From positions 1-32,129 of the IMG/VR virus record IMGVR_UViG_3300008007_000006: DNA of 32,129 nucleotides; one strand, written 5' to 3'. The notes under the pieces were generated by a model, which worked only from the letters and a program-made list of their open reading frames with translations, was not told where the DNA came from and did no database searches. Each line of letters opens with the position of its first letter. Position 1 is the stretch's first letter. The translations under genes were made by a program, and so were the position numbers. Positions 742 through 31,729 of the stretch are shown one piece after another. The stretch is from a virus. Its lineage: Duplodnaviria; Caudoviricetes.

Positions 742-1041
742 ATGAACAGAGAGAAATTAAAATTGCAAAGAATACCTACTATGGTTGAAAGTAATTCAGA
801 CGTTCAAACCTGTGTATTGGAAACTTTGAGGGACGCAGTAGTAACTATTGTTACTACTAATGGTGAAATTAGTGGAGTAATACAAACTAGCGATGCTTTC
901 ACAATACTTGTAGAGGTATCATCTGGTTCTAATAGGTTAGTATACAAAAGCCAAATTGTGTATATTTTATTTGAATCTGACGTGAAAAATGTTACTGAAC
1001 GAATAAAAATGAAAAAAATAAACAGAAAGAGTAAAGGTTGA
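742..1041 (+). CDS. hfq: Hfq-like (Sm/LSm fold) RNA chaperone
   Basis: VQTCVLETLRDAVVTIVTTNGEISGVIQTSDAFTILVEVSSGSNRLVYKSQIVYI aligns by eye with the Hfq core [56 protein letters not shown]; AAGGA RBS. Confidence 0.8.
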   Translation: MNREKLKLQRIPTMVESNSDVQTCVLETLRDAVVTIVTTNGEISGVIQTSDAFTILVEVSSGSNRLVYKSQIVYILFESDVKNVTERIKMKKINRKSKG

Positions 1042-1044
1042 AAT

Positions 1045-1560
1045 ATGTCAGATACCGAAAACGAAACACGGGTACCAAGTTGTGCCCGTTATTTTGATCC
1101 TAAAAATTACCCCGTTGTAGGTATTGATACTAAGGTCTCTAGACTTGAATCTATAGAAGTATACGAAATTATGAATATATTACCTGTAACTATAGAAGAG
1201 GCAGAACAGATAGCTACTAAAATATACAAAGTTAAATACCTAGCTTATAATAACTACTACGAAGAAGATTGTCAAGAAATTTTAAACTGTGGTTCTGAAG
1301 AATTAATGAGACATGATGTTATGTATAGAACAGACCAACATGGGAAATACATAGAAAAGATAAAAATACCACAAAATGACCTTAAACACAAAATATATAA
1401 CATACGCAAGTTGGCCGAAGAAGGATATTATGGTCCAAAAACATCAGAAAAGATATTGTGCATGGAAAGCGAAGAAATATATACCATGAAGATGTATGAA
1501 GAACTTAATACACGCGGTAAACGTAGGCTTAAGAAAAAGAAACGAAAGAAAAAGAAATGA
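1045..1560 (+). CDS. Hypothetical protein with two degenerate copies of the shared domain and a poly-Lys/Arg tail
   Basis: KIYNIRKLAEEGYY..KILCM..LNTRG and KIYKVKYLAYNNYY..EIL; ends RGKRRLKKKKRKKKK. Confidence 0.75.
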   Translation: MSDTENETRVPSCARYFDPKNYPVVGIDTKVSRLESIEVYEIMNILPVTIEEAEQIATKIYKVKYLAYNNYYEEDCQEILNCGSEELMRHDVMYRTDQHGKYIEKIKIPQNDLKHKIYNIRKLAEEGYYGPKTSEKILCMESEEIYTMKMYEELNTRGKRRLKKKKRKKKK

Positions 1561-1898
1561 AAGAAAGAATACTTTCAATCGCAGAAATGATTGACGCATA
1601 TAGAATAGCACCAAGAGCCATACTAATAGTGTATGGCTTTTTGGTTTGGGAAATTTATATTTGGTTTAAATCTCTTGAAACCATAGCAAAAATACAGTGT
1701 CAAGAAGATATATTTTTTAAACTAATACAGAATGGTATTGATGTTAACAAAGCATCTGAAATAGCTTGTGTGGTTATAGAAGTTGTTGGTGGACCTACAG
1801 CACAACAGACAACGTTCGTTACGGCCATTGTGGGACTCTCTACCGCTATTATAGGATTGTATCTTAATAGCGGTAGGAGGTGGGAAAAAAAGGGCTGA
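1557..1898 (+). CDS. Two-TM membrane protein (possibly holin-like)
   Basis: Hydrophobic segments AILIVYGFLVWEIYIWF and FVTAIVGLSTAIIGLY; ATGA overlap with the upstream gene. Confidence 0.7.
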   Translation: MKERILSIAEMIDAYRIAPRAILIVYGFLVWEIYIWFKSLETIAKIQCQEDIFFKLIQNGIDVNKASEIACVVIEVVGGPTAQQTTFVTAIVGLSTAIIGLYLNSGRRWEKKG

Positions 1899-1922
1899 GA
1901 ACCTTTTACAGCGCCCAGCCCT
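1885..1922 (-). terminator. Intrinsic terminator ending the minus-strand structural region and/or the sRNA
   Basis: AGGGCTG-N18-CAGCCCT followed by TTTTTT on the minus strand, between convergent operons. Confidence 0.6.
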
Positions 1923-1940
1923 CACACACACACACACACA
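1923..1940 (+). repeat. (CA)9 dinucleotide tract
   Basis: CACACACACACACACACA read directly from the sequence. Confidence 0.95.
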
Positions 1941-1985
1941 TAGTTAGGGCGCTGCCCAACTGTATTTATTGGAAGGTTACTTTAA

Positions 1986-3696: not shown

Positions 3697-3906
3697 TTAA
3701 GCCCTCAAATACTTAATAGTAGAAGATATGAAAGCTTTGTATTCTTTAAGAATACTTTCATCAACCTCTTCCAAAAATTCTTGGCCATTTTCATTTAATA
3801 CCATAATAGTGTTTGGAAGATTTTCTACATATTCTTGGTATCTCTTTTTCCTTGAGTCTTTATAGTACCTAAGCTCTTTGTTTTCATCATAATAAATTAT
3901 AAACAT
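3697..3906 (-). CDS. Small hypothetical protein (69 aa)
   Basis: TAAGGA RBS followed by CGCACACACAC-ATG; packed between spike and PT-protein genes. Confidence 0.7.
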   Translation of the reverse strand: MFIIYYDENKELRYYKDSRKKRYQEYVENLPNTIMVLNENGQEFLEEVDESILKEYKAFISSTIKYLRA

Positions 3907-3920
3907 GTGTGTGTGCGTCC

Positions 3921-6900
3921 TTATTGTTTGTTATTCAAAATCTGAATTGCGTTAGACAATGGTTGTACATTGACGTTGTTTGTATTTAAGTAATCAACTA
4001 TTGCAGAAAAATCTGTTTCCAACCAGTCTTGACCATCTACCAAAGTAGATACCAAGGTATGAAAATTCAATATAAGCCACTGGTTGTTTGCTACAGCATC
4101 ATCAATCCAACCTTTTACTTGGGCCTGTGTAGTAAACTTGTCAATGGACTGCCTGTTGATGTTGTAAGGAGATATGTAGGTCTGACCATTTGCCCATCCG
4201 TTTATATTAGAAGCGTGAGAAAAGTTTCTTCTAACTTCTTTAATTATATTGTCACTAAATGCACCGTTGGGGTAAGAATAGTGATCCGAACCACGAAAAC
4301 CTCTTTCTAACAAATAGTTTCTTGTAGATCTTAAGTGATCTTCAAGTTCTGATTGAGTAAGGTTGTTAAGGTTACCAATATGATGACCACCAATGTCCCA
4401 TCCCACTTTGTCAAGATCGAACAGCTCTTCTTCTGTTAGGTAACCAGAGTTTCCAATTTCTTCAGGATCGATTAAGGCCGTGCCGGCATACATATATTTG
4501 TCCATATATTCCTTACCGATAATAACATCATCATATCCATCATCAAAAGTGATTGTAACAATGTGTCCCGTGGTGCTGTCAGGTATAGTTGCTATTGAGT
4601 CCAGATGAACCGTTACTCTGTTATTACCATTATCTTGCACCCTTAACAACATTTGTTTTATTGCTGAAAGGTTTGGAGAGCCATCGACAGGAAGATCATC
4701 AACATCTACTACAACTTCTATCCATTCATTGTCTGGTGGGTTTACTAGTCTAGTACCCAAATCAATATTCACAGAATCTGCGAAAGTCCATTCAGAAGAT
4801 GATATTTTCAAAACGACAGCACTTACATCAGCCCAATCATCACATTTAACAAAAAGTCTCAACAAAGATTCACTAATATCCACCGTAGGGCTTAATATTG
4901 GCGTAGAAATACCAGCATTACTGTTTCCAGATTGGGTAGTTACAGTTACTGATCCAGTCTGTGTTACGTGATCATTACTTGTTCCACCATCTCCAGCAGC
5001 GTACCAATCATCCCAACCGCTTTCTGTAGAATATATGTAGCTGCCCCTCGCCCTAGGAAGAGTTACAGTAGGTCTAGAATTTGTATACTTTTGCAGATCA
5101 CTAATATCTTGTTCTACAATTGCCCTGTTTATCCACTCTGAGCCAGTGCCTTCGTAAAAAAAGGCATGGCCGTCAGATGGAGTATTAATGTTAACGTCTG
5201 AAAGTTCATTTATATTTTCTCCTGTAATGTTTGAAATAAAACCAGAAATGCTATTATCGAACAATGATAAGTCATTTTCAACTACAAAGTCAACATTATT
5301 ATTCAAATCATCGTATGTTACTGTAATAAGACTTTGGTTTCCATTCAAAACATTCCAAGCGGCATCTTGTATTTCTTCCTCAGTTTGATCTGCGGTTGAA
5401 CCATCTTCTACGTTAATATGGCTTCTAAGGGAAACAGCATTTATCCCCAAAGATATGTTGCCAGAACTTGTAACAGGCGAACCAGAATCTATTTCTATAC
5501 CGTCACTACCCGAGATTCCAACAGAAGTTACCGTTCCTGTGTTTGTAGTATATCCTTTACTTTCTATATGATCATCTATTGCTGCAGCAGTCATTAGTTG
5601 TGTATCAGAATCTATAAAAGATTCGATACTAGTCAACACAGAACCAGCCTGTATGTCTGAAAAAGACACATCAGTTAAAAATCCAGAAGAGCTATTGTCA
5701 AATAAAGATAGATCGTCGTTTACAATAAAGTCAACGTTTTCGTTAGCATCATCATAAGTTACCGTTATAAGAGTTTGTGTTCCGGTCAAAACATCCCAAG
5801 CAAAATCCTGTACCTCTTCTTTTGTCAAAGAGCCCCCGGAAGTTGCAGCGTCAAATGTTATAGTATCTGAAGAAGCATTAGTGCTTATAGTCATGTTGGT
5901 ACCAGCAACTAATGTCAATGTGTCGGAAGTTGTATCTGCAACAACATCACTCTGTCCAGATACTGATATTGTACCAAAAGCTTGTCCACCACCACCAGAT
6001 GAACTGATTGTAATAGAATCTGTACTCGAATCTGTAGTTAATGTTATATTGCTTCCAGCCACAAGAGTTAAAGTATCATTAGAACTGTCTGCTACGACGT
6101 TGTCCTGCCCGGATATAGATATGGTATTAAAGATGTTTGGGGTGTTTGTGAAATTGTTGTAGTCTAAGAAATATGCTGGTATGTTTCCATCTAACGTTTC
6201 AGAATCTATACCAAGAGCGTCTACAAAAGCTTTGTCCACTCTAATGTCAATGTCAGAATTTGTCCTTGCAGTTGTGTAATATAGGTTAGAAGCTTCTGTA
6301 ACGTCGTCAGTGTCTAAAGTTACAGATCCGGTTTTACCCGATACAGAATCTACGGCGTTAACCTCGGCACCAGCAGAAATACCATCAAGTTTAGTCTTGT
6401 CTGAAGAAGACAATAAACCTGAGTCTGTAGTTGTTGCAGAAGCAATAATAGTGTTACTACCACCAGTGTTGGTTATCTCTATAGTGTCAGGAAGAACGGT
6501 CTGACCCAAATCTACAACAGTCAAATATGATTGTAGATCACTTATTTGTGATTCTGTAATTTCTATTGAAGAATAGACCGAGTTGGATTTGTATCCTGTC
6601 CAGTTGTCTGATCCATGATAAACAAGTTCTATTGACTCTTTCGGGTTAAGAGTAACGTTATTTGCCGTACTATTAGCTTCCGATAAAGTAACACCAGAAG
6701 CGCCTGAAAGCGTCAACACGCCAGTTGAAGATGTATTTCTTATGATGATACTATTAGACGTATCAAACTCGTTGTCTGTGCCCTGAGCAACTGCAACTTG
6801 AGTTGGAATAGTAACAGTGTAATTGTTATCGGTTCTAAGTTCTAGAACTTTGGAAACATCCTGTATTCTAACAGTATATGCTCCGGTAATTTCTCCTATC

Positions 6901-14063: not shown

Positions 14064-14095
14064 CGTACCTTATGTTTATGTGTGTGTTGTAATAA

Positions 14096-17137: not shown

Positions 17138-17527
17138 TTAGTTCTCTTTATGTTGTTTGTAACACTTGTAGTAAGTCGCGTCCCATTCTAAAATCTGACG
17201 AACTTCCCATTTATTTATTTGATAGTTCATAAGCTCTTTGTAGCTTCTTATGTCTGTATGATTAATAGGATGTTCCAAAGACTTAGTATTACGTAATTCC
17301 CAAAACGCGTACCAAACGTTTTGCAATATAAATGGTGGGTTAGTCTCCAATTCGGAAAACTCTTTTCTCTTTTGATCTACGATCTTCTTGAAATTTTCAT
17401 CAAGTTTATCATACATCGATTCTAATTTTTTAAAATGGTTGTAGACTGAGGTACTTCCCTCAGTCTTAGCAGCTTTTACCTGTAATTCTATTATTGAAAT
17501 TAGTCTGTCTTTCCATTCAAAAAAAAA
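17138..17527 (-). CDS. Tail assembly chaperone extension (gpT-like), reached by -1 frameshift from the upstream chaperone
   Basis: The -1 frame is open from the T9 run (FEWKDRLISIIELQVK...) into MYDKL...; contains VWYAFWEL..I..TDIRSY. Confidence 0.75.
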   Translation of the reverse strand, partial: FFFEWKDRLISIIELQVKAAKTEGSTSVYNHFKKLESMYDKLDENFKKIVDQKRKEFSELETNPPFILQNVWYAFWELRNTKSLEHPINHTDIRSYKELMNYQINKWEVRQILEWDATYYKCYKQHKEN

Positions 17528-17961
17528 GCACTATCATCCTTCATTTTTTGATAAATGGCCATTTTTATCCAAGAATAGTTGGAATCCATCAACATTTCAA
17601 CCAGTTTTTCTCTATTAAATGGTTCTCCAAACTCTTCTGACCAGTCCTCTACAACTGCCGCAATTTCTCTGGCTTCCCACTTAGTAGTGTTCTTCATAAA
17701 GTCTAACCATTCTTGGTCAGTCATAGATGTAAAATCTTTTACATTATCAGGACCAATCTCTTTTTCAATTTCTTTCTTAAACTGATCCGGAGCTTCACGT
17801 AGTTTTTGAGCATTTATAATTGTCAAACGGTCAACATAGGTCTGACTTGTAGGAGGGATGAGTGTTAATGTAGCACCAGTGTCACCTATAGTAGGATGTA
17901 CTAGTTTCAAAATACAATTAGAAGGTTCTGTAAGATCAAAAAAATTCTTTTTGTTGTTCAT
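17500..17961 (-). CDS. Tail assembly chaperone (gpG-like)
   Basis: Lies between tail tube and TMP; LVHPTIGDTG motif; slippery T9 near the 3' end. Confidence 0.8.
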   Translation of the reverse strand: MNNKKNFFDLTEPSNCILKLVHPTIGDTGATLTLIPPTSQTYVDRLTIINAQKLREAPDQFKKEIEKEIGPDNVKDFTSMTDQEWLDFMKNTTKWEAREIAAVVEDWSEEFGEPFNREKLVEMLMDSNYSWIKMAIYQKMKDDSAFFLNGKTD

Positions 17962-17989
17962 GTGTGTTTTCCTTTTGTGTGTTTGTGTA

Positions 17990-21028: not shown

Positions 21029-21054
21029 ATTAATATCCTCTGTTGTGTGTTTGT

Positions 21055-22122: not shown

Positions 22123-22184
22123 AAAGCTGTTATGTATTTTTTAATAATTAAAGTCGCTGACTAAAATTTTAGAACCGCAGGTTC

Positions 22185-22871: not shown

Positions 22872-22949
22872 TGTTTTCTCCTATATGTGTATATTTGTTG
22901 TTCAGGCGCTGCCTGTATTACTATTTAGCGATTCTAAAAAAAAAAATTA

Positions 22950-26152: not shown

Positions 26153-26205
26153 TTTCAATCCTCTAGTCGCTGACTGTTAGGGTTTTGTGTATGTGTGTAA
26201 TCTAT

Positions 26206-26777: not shown

Positions 26778-26823
26778 CTTGTTTTCGTCTAATGTCTTAT
26801 TATTTATTATAAGTCGAATAGAA

Positions 26824-26850
26824 AAAAAGAAGTGCTTGGCACTTCTTTTT
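26824..26850. terminator. Bidirectional-type intrinsic terminator
   Basis: AAAAAGAAGTGC-TTG-GCACTTCTTTTT perfect inverted repeat. Confidence 0.8.
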
Positions 26851-26884
26851 GTTTTACATGTTTATTTATGCAATTGTATTGTTT

Positions 26885-29470: not shown

Positions 29471-30886
29471 TTATGTTTGTTTAAAGCCACCATTAGTATT
29501 AAGCTTTTCCCATATTGACAATTTTACTATCTCGTGTTTCTTATCGTTCTTTACCATTGACAAAATTTTAGTGTTAACCATTGGCATGTAAAACCCTGCT
29601 TTTGCTTTCTTTATTATGTTGTTGGCCTTTACTCTTTCTGTTGTATTGGACCATAATTTCTTTCTACCTGTTGACTTATTATTTCTTGCTTCAAATTCTA
29701 CTTCTATTTTGTTTAGCTTTACATTGTTAAAAGAGCTAGAAAGCTTGCAGTATAGTAATTCTGCGGTTTTTTGATCTACACAATGTATACTAACAGGGTC
29801 TTTCGATTTTCTATCTCTTAGAGAGCATCTCATTACAGCTTGGTAAAAAACGTTGGCCGATACTCTATTGTCTGCATAACCAACACCGTAGGTATCTTCT
29901 ACATATTTTCTGTATGTTGTTTCAAAGTTTGTTGTTTTGGTAATAACTACATTACTCACATGTTGATAGGTGTTCAGAGAATGAGAATTTACAGGCAATT
30001 CTGTCCAGTTGTGTTCAAACAAACCGTATGACTTGTTGTTCAACAATAAAGTATCTGTATCTCCCGATTTTCTCTTTATGGTTTCTACTATAGTGTTATA
30101 GTCGTTATTGTATTTTTCCTTGAAGTACCTACTATTGTTCTCTTCCATATAGAAAGAAATTGTGACTGGTCTATCAGAAGTTTCAGTTTCTATATTGTCT
30201 ACCTTAACCTTCGGGCAGTGTAAAACTACAAACTCATGTATGTCTGCATCTTCACCTAACAATATTGCGTCAGATGGGAAATATGTGTTAGATGGTTCTA
30301 TAGCACAACTGTAAGATACTATACCAGTATTAGAACTAGTGTCCTTCTTGACCAATTTCAATTTCAATTTTCCAGATTCTATTCTAAGCATCACATCTAA
30401 AATACCTGAAACATAGGTCTTAATATTAGAAGTAGAATTTCTTGAAAGCTTTTTCAACAAATTAAGGTTTTTTGGTAAAAGGTAGCCTTCATTATTTTCA
30501 AAATAAGTGTTGATGAGGTTTAATTCATTGCTGTCAACTAGAGTTATTCCTGATACTAAAGGCAATGGGTCGTCTACTACAACCTGATGTGTCAAATACC
30601 TATTTGGTGGTATTTGTTCGAACATCTGTATTGTACAAACCACAACGTTCTTGGTTTCATCTTTTAGGTATCTCTGTAAAGTCTCTTTTACATTTGCCCC
30701 ACAATGATCACTGTCTATTGCAATAACAGATTTTTCTGTGTGTTTTTGTATTAAATCATGTATTTCTTTTACTGCTGGTTTAGAGGGACATACGTAAAGA
30801 ACAGGTCTTTCGATAAACCCAAGTCTGTTTTTTATGAACGATGTAGTTTTTCCAGAACCACATGAACCCTTGATTATCTGTATCAT
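29471..30886 (-). CDS. SF2-like P-loop helicase / putative replication initiator with C-terminal shared domain
   Basis: Walker A GSCGSGKT, motif Ia LYVCPS, Walker-B-like VVVDD, motif VI-like YQAVMRCSLR; adjacent to the putative origin. Confidence 0.72.
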   Translation of the reverse strand: MIQIIKGSCGSGKTTSFIKNRLGFIERPVLYVCPSKPAVKEIHDLIQKHTEKSVIAIDSDHCGANVKETLQRYLKDETKNVVVCTIQMFEQIPPNRYLTHQVVVDDPLPLVSGITLVDSNELNLINTYFENNEGYLLPKNLNLLKKLSRNSTSNIKTYVSGILDVMLRIESGKLKLKLVKKDTSSNTGIVSYSCAIEPSNTYFPSDAILLGEDADIHEFVVLHCPKVKVDNIETETSDRPVTISFYMEENNSRYFKEKYNNDYNTIVETIKRKSGDTDTLLLNNKSYGLFEHNWTELPVNSHSLNTYQHVSNVVITKTTNFETTYRKYVEDTYGVGYADNRVSANVFYQAVMRCSLRDRKSKDPVSIHCVDQKTAELLYCKLSSSFNNVKLNKIEVEFEARNNKSTGRKKLWSNTTERVKANNIIKKAKAGFYMPMVNTKILSMVKNDKKHEIVKLSIWEKLNTNGGFKQT

Positions 30887-31352: not shown

Positions 31353-31478
31353 AAAAAAAGCCCTACTTATGTAGGGCTTCGTTATACCAAAAGGCAACAT
31401 TCAAACGACTGTAGTCTCATAGGGCATGGGGTACCTCAACTACAGCTATTAAACGCAGGTCGAAAATTATCATTCAAC
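31353..31478 (-). ncRNA. Putative ~126-nt small RNA
   Basis: TATAAATA at 31484-31491 (-); 9-bp internal stem 31438-31446/31408-31416; terminator AAGCCCTAC-ATAA-GTAGGGCTT-T5; no RBS-led ORF. Confidence 0.6.
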
Positions 31479-31521
31479 ACTACTATTTATATCAATTTGA
31501 AATTAATAGAAAACTATTTGT

Positions 31522-31622
31522 AAAAAAAAAGCCCCGGATAAACCGGGGCGGATTTGCTTGGAGTTAATGTCTAAATGTCTATAGTAGTCTTTAGAAGACC
31601 GGCGTAGAACATTGCGTTCTAC
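31522..31622 (-). ncRNA. Putative ~101-nt small RNA
   Basis: TATAAATA at 31628-31635 (-); 5' hairpin GTAGAAC/GTTCTAC at the predicted +1; terminator GCCCCGG-TTTAT-CCGGGGC-T9. Confidence 0.65.
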
Positions 31623-31651
31623 ATTTCTATTTATACAGTTTGACAAAAAAC

Positions 31652-31680
31652 TTGACAAAAAACATTTTTTACTTTATACT
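31652..31680 (+). promoter_or_regulatory. Sigma70-type promoter TTGACA-N17-TATACT
   Basis: TTGACA 31652-31657 and TATACT 31675-31680; second TTGACA at 31640-31645; TATAAATA at 31684-31691. Confidence 0.8.
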
Positions 31681-31729
31681 TTATATAAATAGTAATGTAA
31701 ACAAACACACACAATAAAGGAGTTTAACA

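Follow-up and report, generated by a model that had tools for sequence, protein, structure and literature searches.

The 32,129-nucleotide stretch of DNA analyzed here, from an uncultured groundwater phage (the window; IMG/VR record IMGVR_UViG_3300008007_000006) may well encode a helper-switched, GcvB-like small RNA of 73 nt that damps the phage's own assembly genes. We assign this reading, which we draw from sequence, a probability of about 0.55. It appears quite likely that a discrete RNA is made from the locus and, with similar likelihood, that such an RNA, once made, would act on the CA-rich leaders described below.

The locus was singled out in a first-pass annotation, which quoted the minus strand between positions 1885 and 1970 and read it as a small RNA with a (UG)9 seed. 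The quoted sequence is exact. On this strand, a putative promoter of the T4 late type (AATAAATA, 1963..1970) would occupy positions -13 to -6 with respect to a predicted transcription start at G1957. This assignment follows the consensus and spacing described for T4 late promoters (PMC1524935), where TATAAATA spans -13 to -6, A is common at -13, and the phage sigma factor gp55 is the reader. The site shares its motif class with 18 intergenic ATAAATA sites, and no gene lies downstream of it on the minus strand. The predicted +1 is the first base of a hairpin (GGGC-AGC-GCCC, 1947..1957, minus strand) that belongs to a set of five C(A/U)GCG triloop hairpins genome-wide. It is followed by the largely unpaired seed UAACUA(UG)9 (1923..1946, minus strand), which contains the sole TG/CA tract longer than 10 nt in the genome, and by a predicted intrinsic terminator with a U7 tail (1885..1923, minus strand; stem pair probabilities 0.98–1.0) that also terminates the tail-fibre transcript. 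At the sequence level, the element has the own promoter and the U-tailed intrinsic terminator of an Hfq-dependent trans-acting sRNA. Two features of this layout were counted against an sRNA: read on the plus strand, the promoter is the U-rich tail of the plus-strand hairpin, and the terminator is required for the tail-fibre transcript regardless of any sRNA.

The terminator folds with -19.6 kcal/mol on the minus strand versus -11.8 kcal/mol on the plus strand, with four G-U pairs in the stem, and by this calculation it favours the minus strand. The region 1880-1975 folds modestly better than shuffled sequences (z -2.07; 5 of 200 were as good). In the free RNA the 5'-hairpin has a pair probability of about 0.25, and it is formed in 7/7 predicted RNA-target co-folds. 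Both hairpins are retained with all seven leaders, at gains of -15 to -24 kcal/mol. We can also exclude that the tract is an assembly slip, since a contig from run X7 (905 nt, 1601-2505) is identical and one IMG/VR contig carries the element unchanged. Most of the source runs that contain the sequence are aquifer metagenomes from a single year, possibly from one campaign; no RNA dataset is listed among them. A coding role of the tract was considered and rejected, because the 71-aa GTG reading frame on the minus strand (1722-1937) begins within the repeat itself and shares its DNA with a conserved gene encoded on the opposite strand. A SCARNA7 match over the locus was also discarded (20.8 bits versus a cut-off of 65). 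The Rfam search over the window returned four weak matches, none of which reached the gathering score and none of which was to GcvB.

Two further promoters that have no gene close by (near 31628-31634 and near 31484-31490) place +1 at the first base of a hairpin, which supports the promoter register at G1957. Both match TATAAATA and lead to U-tailed terminators. The first would produce a second candidate sRNA of ~101 nt (31522-31622, minus strand; U9 terminator, z -3.8), divergent from a lipoprotein-like gene, for which no clear target was found in our search. The other would produce a third, highly structured candidate of ~126 nt (31353-31478, minus strand; z -6.0). A weak Rfam match to SprX at 31450-31578 (31 bits versus 80) overlaps both. 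When the three candidate RNAs were compared with XacN1 and G001 by short-word BLAST, all matches stayed at chance level. At 26822-26862 (minus strand), a promoter (CATAAATA) is followed at once by a 12-bp hairpin with a U tail (z -5.2), which could either yield a terminated transcript of ~36 nt or act as an attenuator ahead of the following promoter.

The window carries a 28-nt terminal repeat and is classed as a complete genome of ~32 kb. Its genes account for a complete siphophage particle, with terminase, portal, scaffold, capsid, connectors, tube and tape measure as well as a tail tip of the lambda-like M-L-K-I-J type. One of its tail proteins (1390 aa) carries a polysaccharide deacetylase domain; near the end of its gene, a 2-nt deletion allele at 4093-4094 (contig L001, run X7) alters the C-terminal frame. 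At the thresholds used, the complete genome yielded no call for a sigma factor, an RNA or DNA polymerase, or an integrase. Predicted T4-late-type promoters nevertheless precede most of the genes. Over the whole genome, ATAAATA occurs 24 times, of which 18 sites are intergenic, five lie in sense orientation within genes, and one is antisense to a gene. Intergenic DNA accounts for only 2188 of 32101 bases (6.8%), so that the motif is distributed like a promoter (p 9e-17 for the intergenic excess). The late sigma family phrog_234 is absent from the complete phage genome, and the same search was positive in 4/4 controls, namely the jumbo phages XacN1, Xoo-sp13, RAS14 and Atu_ph07, all of which carry a late sigma factor. 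The phage therefore lacks a function that its promoters appear to require, as expected of a helper-dependent satellite, and this sigma factor is likely borrowed from a larger helper phage. TAAATA sites are retained at the same places in a sister lineage (contigs L096-L098; capsid 72–73% and terL 69% identical). The relatives of terL from sister lineages lie at 68–76%. The combination of T4-late-type promoters that are kept in both lineages with a missing late sigma gene likely marks a clade of helper-dependent siphophages. The phage itself is likely a virion-autonomous satellite that borrows late transcription from a jumbo myophage, although an own activator among the unassigned ORFs is conceivable.

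Two proteins connect the phage to jumbo phages. The gene for a 113-aa predicted membrane protein (1557..1898, plus strand), the stop of which overlaps the terminator, adjoins the predicted RNA and is common to XacN1-like jumbo phages. Its product is 43–45% identical to the products of genes in XacN1, Xoo-sp13, CM1 and RAS14, and is also matched in L003, a fragment with the gene order of XacN1. A 471-aa helicase-like protein (29471-30886) matches only Atu_ph07 among cultured phages. A 142-aa ORF (71-499) is paralogous, at 30%, to the C-terminal ~110 residues of this helicase-like protein and possibly represents a stand-alone DNA-binding regulator of replication.

The seven perfect complements of the seed that the first-pass annotation had reported are all present. 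They comprise an 11-nt match over the ribosome-binding site (RBS) spacer and start codon of a 69-aa ORF (3905..3915, minus strand; -21.5 kcal/mol), an 11-nt match in the leader of a gpK-like NlpC/P60 tail gene (14077..14087, minus strand; -21.3 kcal/mol), and two tracts in the leader of a gpG-like tail chaperone (17960..17982, minus strand; -18.0 kcal/mol), one of 8 nt over the start codon (17960-17967) and one of 7 nt (17976-17982). An ACACATA tract adjoins the Shine–Dalgarno sequence (SD) in the scaffold leader (22884..22890, minus strand; -19.0 kcal/mol), and 9-nt matches are found at the 5' end of the putative terS leader (26190..26198, minus strand; -19.2 kcal/mol) and in the leader of the lipoprotein-like gene, the first gene of the plus operon (31705..31713, plus strand; -15.0 kcal/mol). 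The 7-nt match in the leader of a 92-aa ORF (21044..21050, minus strand) is a weaker predicted target, since its -11.7 kcal/mol is equalled by 5 of 195 coding windows. The terS tract sits about 34–47 nt upstream of the ATG, off the RBS. The description of the targets as low-copy assembly proteins proved to be a loose label, as the scaffold, the lipoprotein-like gene and two ORFs of no assigned role are among them. The names terS and lipoprotein are assigned from position and sequence and correspond to no named family match. The tail chaperone call is supported by a terminal T9 slippery run in this gene, which leads into an open frame in the PF23812 ORF as in gpG/gpGT-type frameshifting (17138-17545, minus strand).

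The enrichment of alternating CA repeats in leaders over coding sequence is pronounced. ACACAC or CACACA occurs 21 times in 1462 leader positions versus 8 times in 28141 coding positions (Fisher p 9e-22), an excess of about 50-fold. The other 18 hexamers of three A and three C are not enriched (6 in leaders versus 164 in coding sequence). Counted by gene, ACACAC/CACACA is present in 6/34 leaders (dinucleotide-shuffle mean 2.3, p 0.01), as is ACACACA (shuffle mean 1.2, p 0.0003). Outside the element itself, there are eight (AC)n tracts of at least 7 nt; seven of them are found on the coding strand no more than 40 nt from a start codon, consistent with a reading at the level of RNA rather than DNA. 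Extension of the pairing into the nonrepetitive flank of the seed, also proposed earlier, left a weak signal: ACACAT occurs in 5/34 leaders (p 0.035), but CACAT does not stand out (p 0.12), and in two of the five flank matches the AU is the start codon itself. When opening energies were included, five start regions reached -18.0 to -21.5 kcal/mol, all better than 195/195 coding windows. The start region of the 113-aa gene reached -14.6 kcal/mol although it has no CA tract. Those of capsid, portal, terL, tape measure and J remained at -5.3 kcal/mol or weaker, and that of the tube at -7.8 kcal/mol. No tract-length alleles were listed at six leaders between 13000 and 32129 in contigs of four runs, a type of data that drops rare variants. 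A dinucleotide seed cannot prove specificity.

The first-pass annotation had further proposed a self-contained regulon of this RNA and a phage Hfq. A 99-aa Hfq-like Sm-fold protein is predicted at 742..1041 (plus strand), 0.85 kb from the RNA, and matches Pfam PF17209 with 31.4 bits (cut-off 27). It is divergent and falls below the NCBIfam equivalog cut-offs (TIGR02383, 25.1 versus 61.7; NF001602, 23 versus 95). Six of its eight weak PDB matches are Hfq, and an Atlas model aligns to Hfq clusters at TM 0.66–0.68; a single-sequence model was too poor to use (pLDDT 41). The protein retains the residues Q, NG, D, F and YK but has S in place of the H of YKH, and the aromatics around NG are replaced or missing. 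We take the conserved residues to form a proximal face that binds U and a distal face that binds A; with these roles, the protein would keep binding of U tails and have an altered distal face. A search for relatives returned the protein itself and one further candidate, which was rejected as a low-complexity repeat protein; tblastn against cultured phages and a profile search of seven records gave no relative. A literature search, from which subscription journals were mostly absent, gave no phage-encoded Hfq among the matches listed. Of this proposal, a discrete minus-strand sRNA aimed at the phage's own CA leaders agrees with the promoter, the predicted +1, the terminator asymmetry, the target specificity and the lineage-specific tracts described below, whereas the link to Hfq consists of co-location and the Pfam match, by which the RNA possibly depends on this protein.

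The Hfq-like gene is part of an operon on the plus strand that is headed by a near-consensus sigma70 promoter (31652..31680, plus strand; 11/12 by pattern match), and we infer that this protein could be made before the helper arrives. The 3' UTR of the operon (1899..1975, plus strand) is fully antisense to the RNA and folds into a stem whose 23-nt loop exposes (CA)9 (-17.6 kcal/mol). This arrangement raises the strongest alternative, which we nevertheless consider unlikely: the plus-strand 3' UTR could be the working molecule, and its (CA)9 could soak up a CA-reading factor that also binds the leader tracts, such as ribosomal protein S1, a repressor, the phage Sm protein or a host G/U-rich sRNA. 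Such a decoy would suit the plus-strand fold, in which a 9-bp inverted repeat closes an open loop with (CA)9, and the near-consensus promoter match at the head of the operon; it would also suit the CA-rich leaders of XacN1-like phages, which occur without a UG RNA. There is also a precedent for a CA-type sponge from a prophage, AgvB of EHEC prophage Sp5 (PMC4104026), a phage-encoded C/A-rich RNA that sequesters a G/U-rich seed. AgvB, however, is reported as a separate transcript with the consensus CACAACA and a host sRNA as its target, whereas the CA strand discussed here is a 3' UTR without CACAACA and the exact antisense of the phage's own RNA. Because none of the four CACAACA copies in the window falls within 1899-1975, an AgvB-type role against GcvB is not favoured. 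Furthermore, no separate plus-strand promoter was found near the tract, and the decoy leaves the minus-strand promoter and the hairpin at +1 unexplained.

Leaders were compared between the phage and 12 other sequences using one mechanical ORF caller. These sequences are nonrandom matches from earlier searches; Atu_ph07, LP-030-3 and BDU-MI-1 were included in part, and XacN1 without its second terminal repeat. Alternation-specific leader enrichment was 54-fold in the phage, 6.6-fold in XacN1, 6.0-fold in Xoo-sp13 and 0.5- to 2.3-fold in the other 10 of 12. The alternation bias of the phage leaders (73-fold over hexamers of the same composition) is the strongest among the compared sequences, and its longest TG/CA tract measures 18 nt versus 6–9 nt in the 12 others. 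Start regions with pairing energies of -17 kcal/mol or better account for 5/33 in the phage versus 1/2178 in ten of the 12 comparison records (p 3e-9; BDU-MI-1 and L098 left out). In XacN1 (about 11–21 kb) and Xoo-sp13 (about 9–18 kb), CA-repeat leaders lie right behind sigma70-like -10 boxes, and there is no TG tract longer than 8 nt. A long UG tract is therefore no prerequisite for CA-repeat leaders, and some targets could be present in a jumbo helper. ACA is described as a general translation enhancer that is silenced by GcvB (PMC3879156); together with the XacN1 and Xoo-sp13 leaders, this finding implies that such leaders need no sRNA to exist.

These data bear on a second alternative, namely that the RNA is real but serves mainly as a weapon against the helper or the host, with the matches in its own genome being secondary. 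Among the comparison groups, CA-repeat leaders (6–7-fold) are confined to the jumbo family linked to the phage, and SviR of the satellite PLE is induced by the helper and lowers translation of a helper gene (10.1101/2022.04.08.487710). In the energy comparison, -17 kcal/mol was reached by 5/33 start regions of the phage itself versus 1/808 of XacN1 and Xoo-sp13, the jumbo phages that stand in for the helper, and 0/44 of G001. Moreover, many of the jumbo CA leaders look early from their position directly behind -10 boxes, whereas the RNA would be late. This alternative seems distinctly improbable to us.

The sister lineage allows a comparison of three target leaders. The (AC)n tracts are absent from the scaffold, terS and 92-aa-like leaders of L096-L098 (3/3 orthologous leaders). 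Accordingly, the duplex energies of these leaders are -9.1, -11.2 and -4.6 kcal/mol in the sister lineage versus -21.3, -21.2 and -15.5 kcal/mol in the phage, while the capsid leader, which is not a target, hardly differs between the two (-9.2 and -8.8 kcal/mol). The three sister contigs are near-identical and count as one comparison. They are also short and do not extend to the RNA locus, and therefore provide no seed-target covariation. The comparison suggests that the CA tracts are a coordinated, lineage-specific gain or loss. Homologues of the RNA itself were confined to the same strain: in two IMG/VR pattern scans, the full layout occurred in 1/88 and 1/4 stretches, and the remaining 87/88 and 3/4 were rejected as unrelated repeats without the order promoter, hairpin, seed and terminator. 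Protein-anchored IMG/VR scans found same-strain contigs, the one sister lineage and distant terminases. A metagenome scan (20/64 parts) found at least 20 distant terminases, none of which, among the matches listed, belongs to the clade of the phage; both GTDB scans were empty for homologues. Many unrelated viral contigs (L014, L017, L018, L026, L042, L062 and others) contain (CA)n runs of variable length; on the opposite strand, an RBS and a start codon precede these runs by no more than about 30 nt. These runs look like phase-variable coding repeats, a different phenomenon.

We regard it as very unlikely that there is no regulatory RNA at all, and that the locus consists of back-to-back terminators of convergent operons with a microsatellite grown by slippage, while the leader tracts act as independent ACA enhancers. 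Both hairpins do have a terminator role, and such tracts slip, as indicated by a +TG allele at 3905 that was seen in one contig of low depth (depth 2, run X23). A neutral repeat, however, would need the 18-nt tract, the strongest leader alternation bias and a promoter in register to coincide.

The triloop hairpins suggest a role for structure. All five are intergenic and on the coding strand: one in the terS leader (near 26171), one in the scaffold leader (22903..22915, minus strand), two behind the scaffold stop (near 22179 and 22158, minus strand) and one at the 5' end of the RNA. Copies occur at the same places in the sister lineage (L096 558, 1183, 1296 and 1318; L098 1215 and 1235), where the arms differ yet remain complementary (AGGC/GCCT versus GGGTC/GACCC; one with G-U pairs), and at the terS leader the hairpin replaces the CA tract. 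The motif has a shuffle mean of 0.04, but some core with at least five copies arises in 58/300 shuffles. In the scaffold leader, the count of preserved pairs was matched by 122/500 shuffles, in an alignment that is gapped within the stem and has three near-identical rows out of four. P22 scaffold is reported to autoregulate its translation (10.1101/2022.12.13.520362), which is a lead for a triloop-binding protein and not evidence. In the nascent RNA at 49–64 nt, the best fold pairs nt 3–11 with the 5' arm of the terminator (a 9-bp inverted repeat), and the full-length RNA prefers the terminator fold over this 5'-end pairing by 4.4 kcal/mol. An RNA that acts via structure, either with its 5' C-AGC-G triloop as a decoy or recruiter of a protein that also binds the terS and scaffold hairpins, or with its 5' stem switching the terminator off during transcription, is the least likely of the readings considered, because only two lineages are available, the frequency of the motif is tempered by the look-elsewhere shuffles, the terminator fold wins at full length, and the match between seed and leaders is left unexplained; it may add to the other readings instead of competing with them.

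Returning to the GcvB-like sRNA, we propose the following mechanism. The T4-type late sigma factor of the helper would switch on the RNA from G1957 together with the late genes. The unpaired (UG)9 seed would then pair with (AC)n tracts at the starts of about seven own mRNAs and lower their translation. As with GcvB, pairing would cover the start codon (in the 69-aa ORF and the tail chaperone), the SD-proximal leader (in the scaffold, gpK, lipoprotein-like and 92-aa genes) or an upstream ACA enhancer (in terS). The U7 tail could be bound by the Hfq of the phage or of the host. Since a separate late-type promoter of this class precedes most of the target genes, the RNA would brake them jointly and so balance the output of selected assembly genes with that of capsid, portal, tube and tape measure, all of which are without a site. 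By titrating the first RNA made, the antisense 3' UTR at the end of the plus operon would set a threshold. A more elaborate version, which we find doubtful but possible, describes a virion-autonomous satellite that runs all of its late expression on a jumbo sigma factor and tunes its protein ratios by a private Hfq, a microsatellite-seeded sRNA, slippable (AC)n tags and an antisense threshold. In such a system the helper sigma would fire all promoters together, and ratios would therefore be set post-transcriptionally.

The RNA would work like GcvB but is not a member of this family. Its unpaired G/U-rich seed is complementary, in silico, to C/A-rich initiation regions. Whereas the phage RNA has 73 nt, a pure (UG)9 seed, a T4-late-type promoter and predicted targets among its own assembly genes, GcvB is about 200 nt long. 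GcvB is also chromosomal and controls amino-acid uptake and metabolism, while the phage RNA resides in a complete phage genome. The likeness lies in the unpaired G/U-rich seed and in many C/A-rich targets that include upstream ACA enhancers and are positioned at variable distance from the SD (PMC3879156). SviR of the Vibrio cholerae satellite PLE resembles the phage RNA as a trans-acting sRNA of a satellite with a helper-induced promoter and targets in its own genome (10.1101/2022.04.08.487710). As described there, its main form differs in having 210 nt, two seeds and no need for Hfq or ProQ, and PLE borrows helper virion parts. By contrast, the phage discussed here has genes for an entire virion and for an Hfq-like protein, and the stand-in jumbo phages gave no support for helper targets. 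The Streptomyces satellites MiniFlayer and Mulch are reported to carry encapsidation machinery, to lack key replication genes and to depend on a helper (PMC10690885), whereas the dependence proposed here would concern a T4-type late sigma factor. VpdS and PreS (PMC12197685) parallel the predicted RNA as phage-encoded trans-acting sRNAs; they bind Hfq, but they use the bacterial chaperone, and no phage-encoded Hfq or repeat seed is described in the part of this source considered here. Satellites with T4-type late promoters did not appear in the literature among the matches listed.

The strongest added value of the present analysis is this setting, a single small genome that combines apparent borrowing of a late sigma factor with a gene for an Hfq-like protein and three candidate sRNAs. 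If our reading is true, the phage would contain an sRNA regulon with its own Hfq-like chaperone, and a small siphophage would depend on the T4-type late transcription of a jumbo phage. It would also mean that a multitarget regulon can arise quickly, with a dinucleotide repeat as the seed and with leaders that join by gaining (AC)n, a mode of fast recruitment that the sister-lineage comparison suggests.
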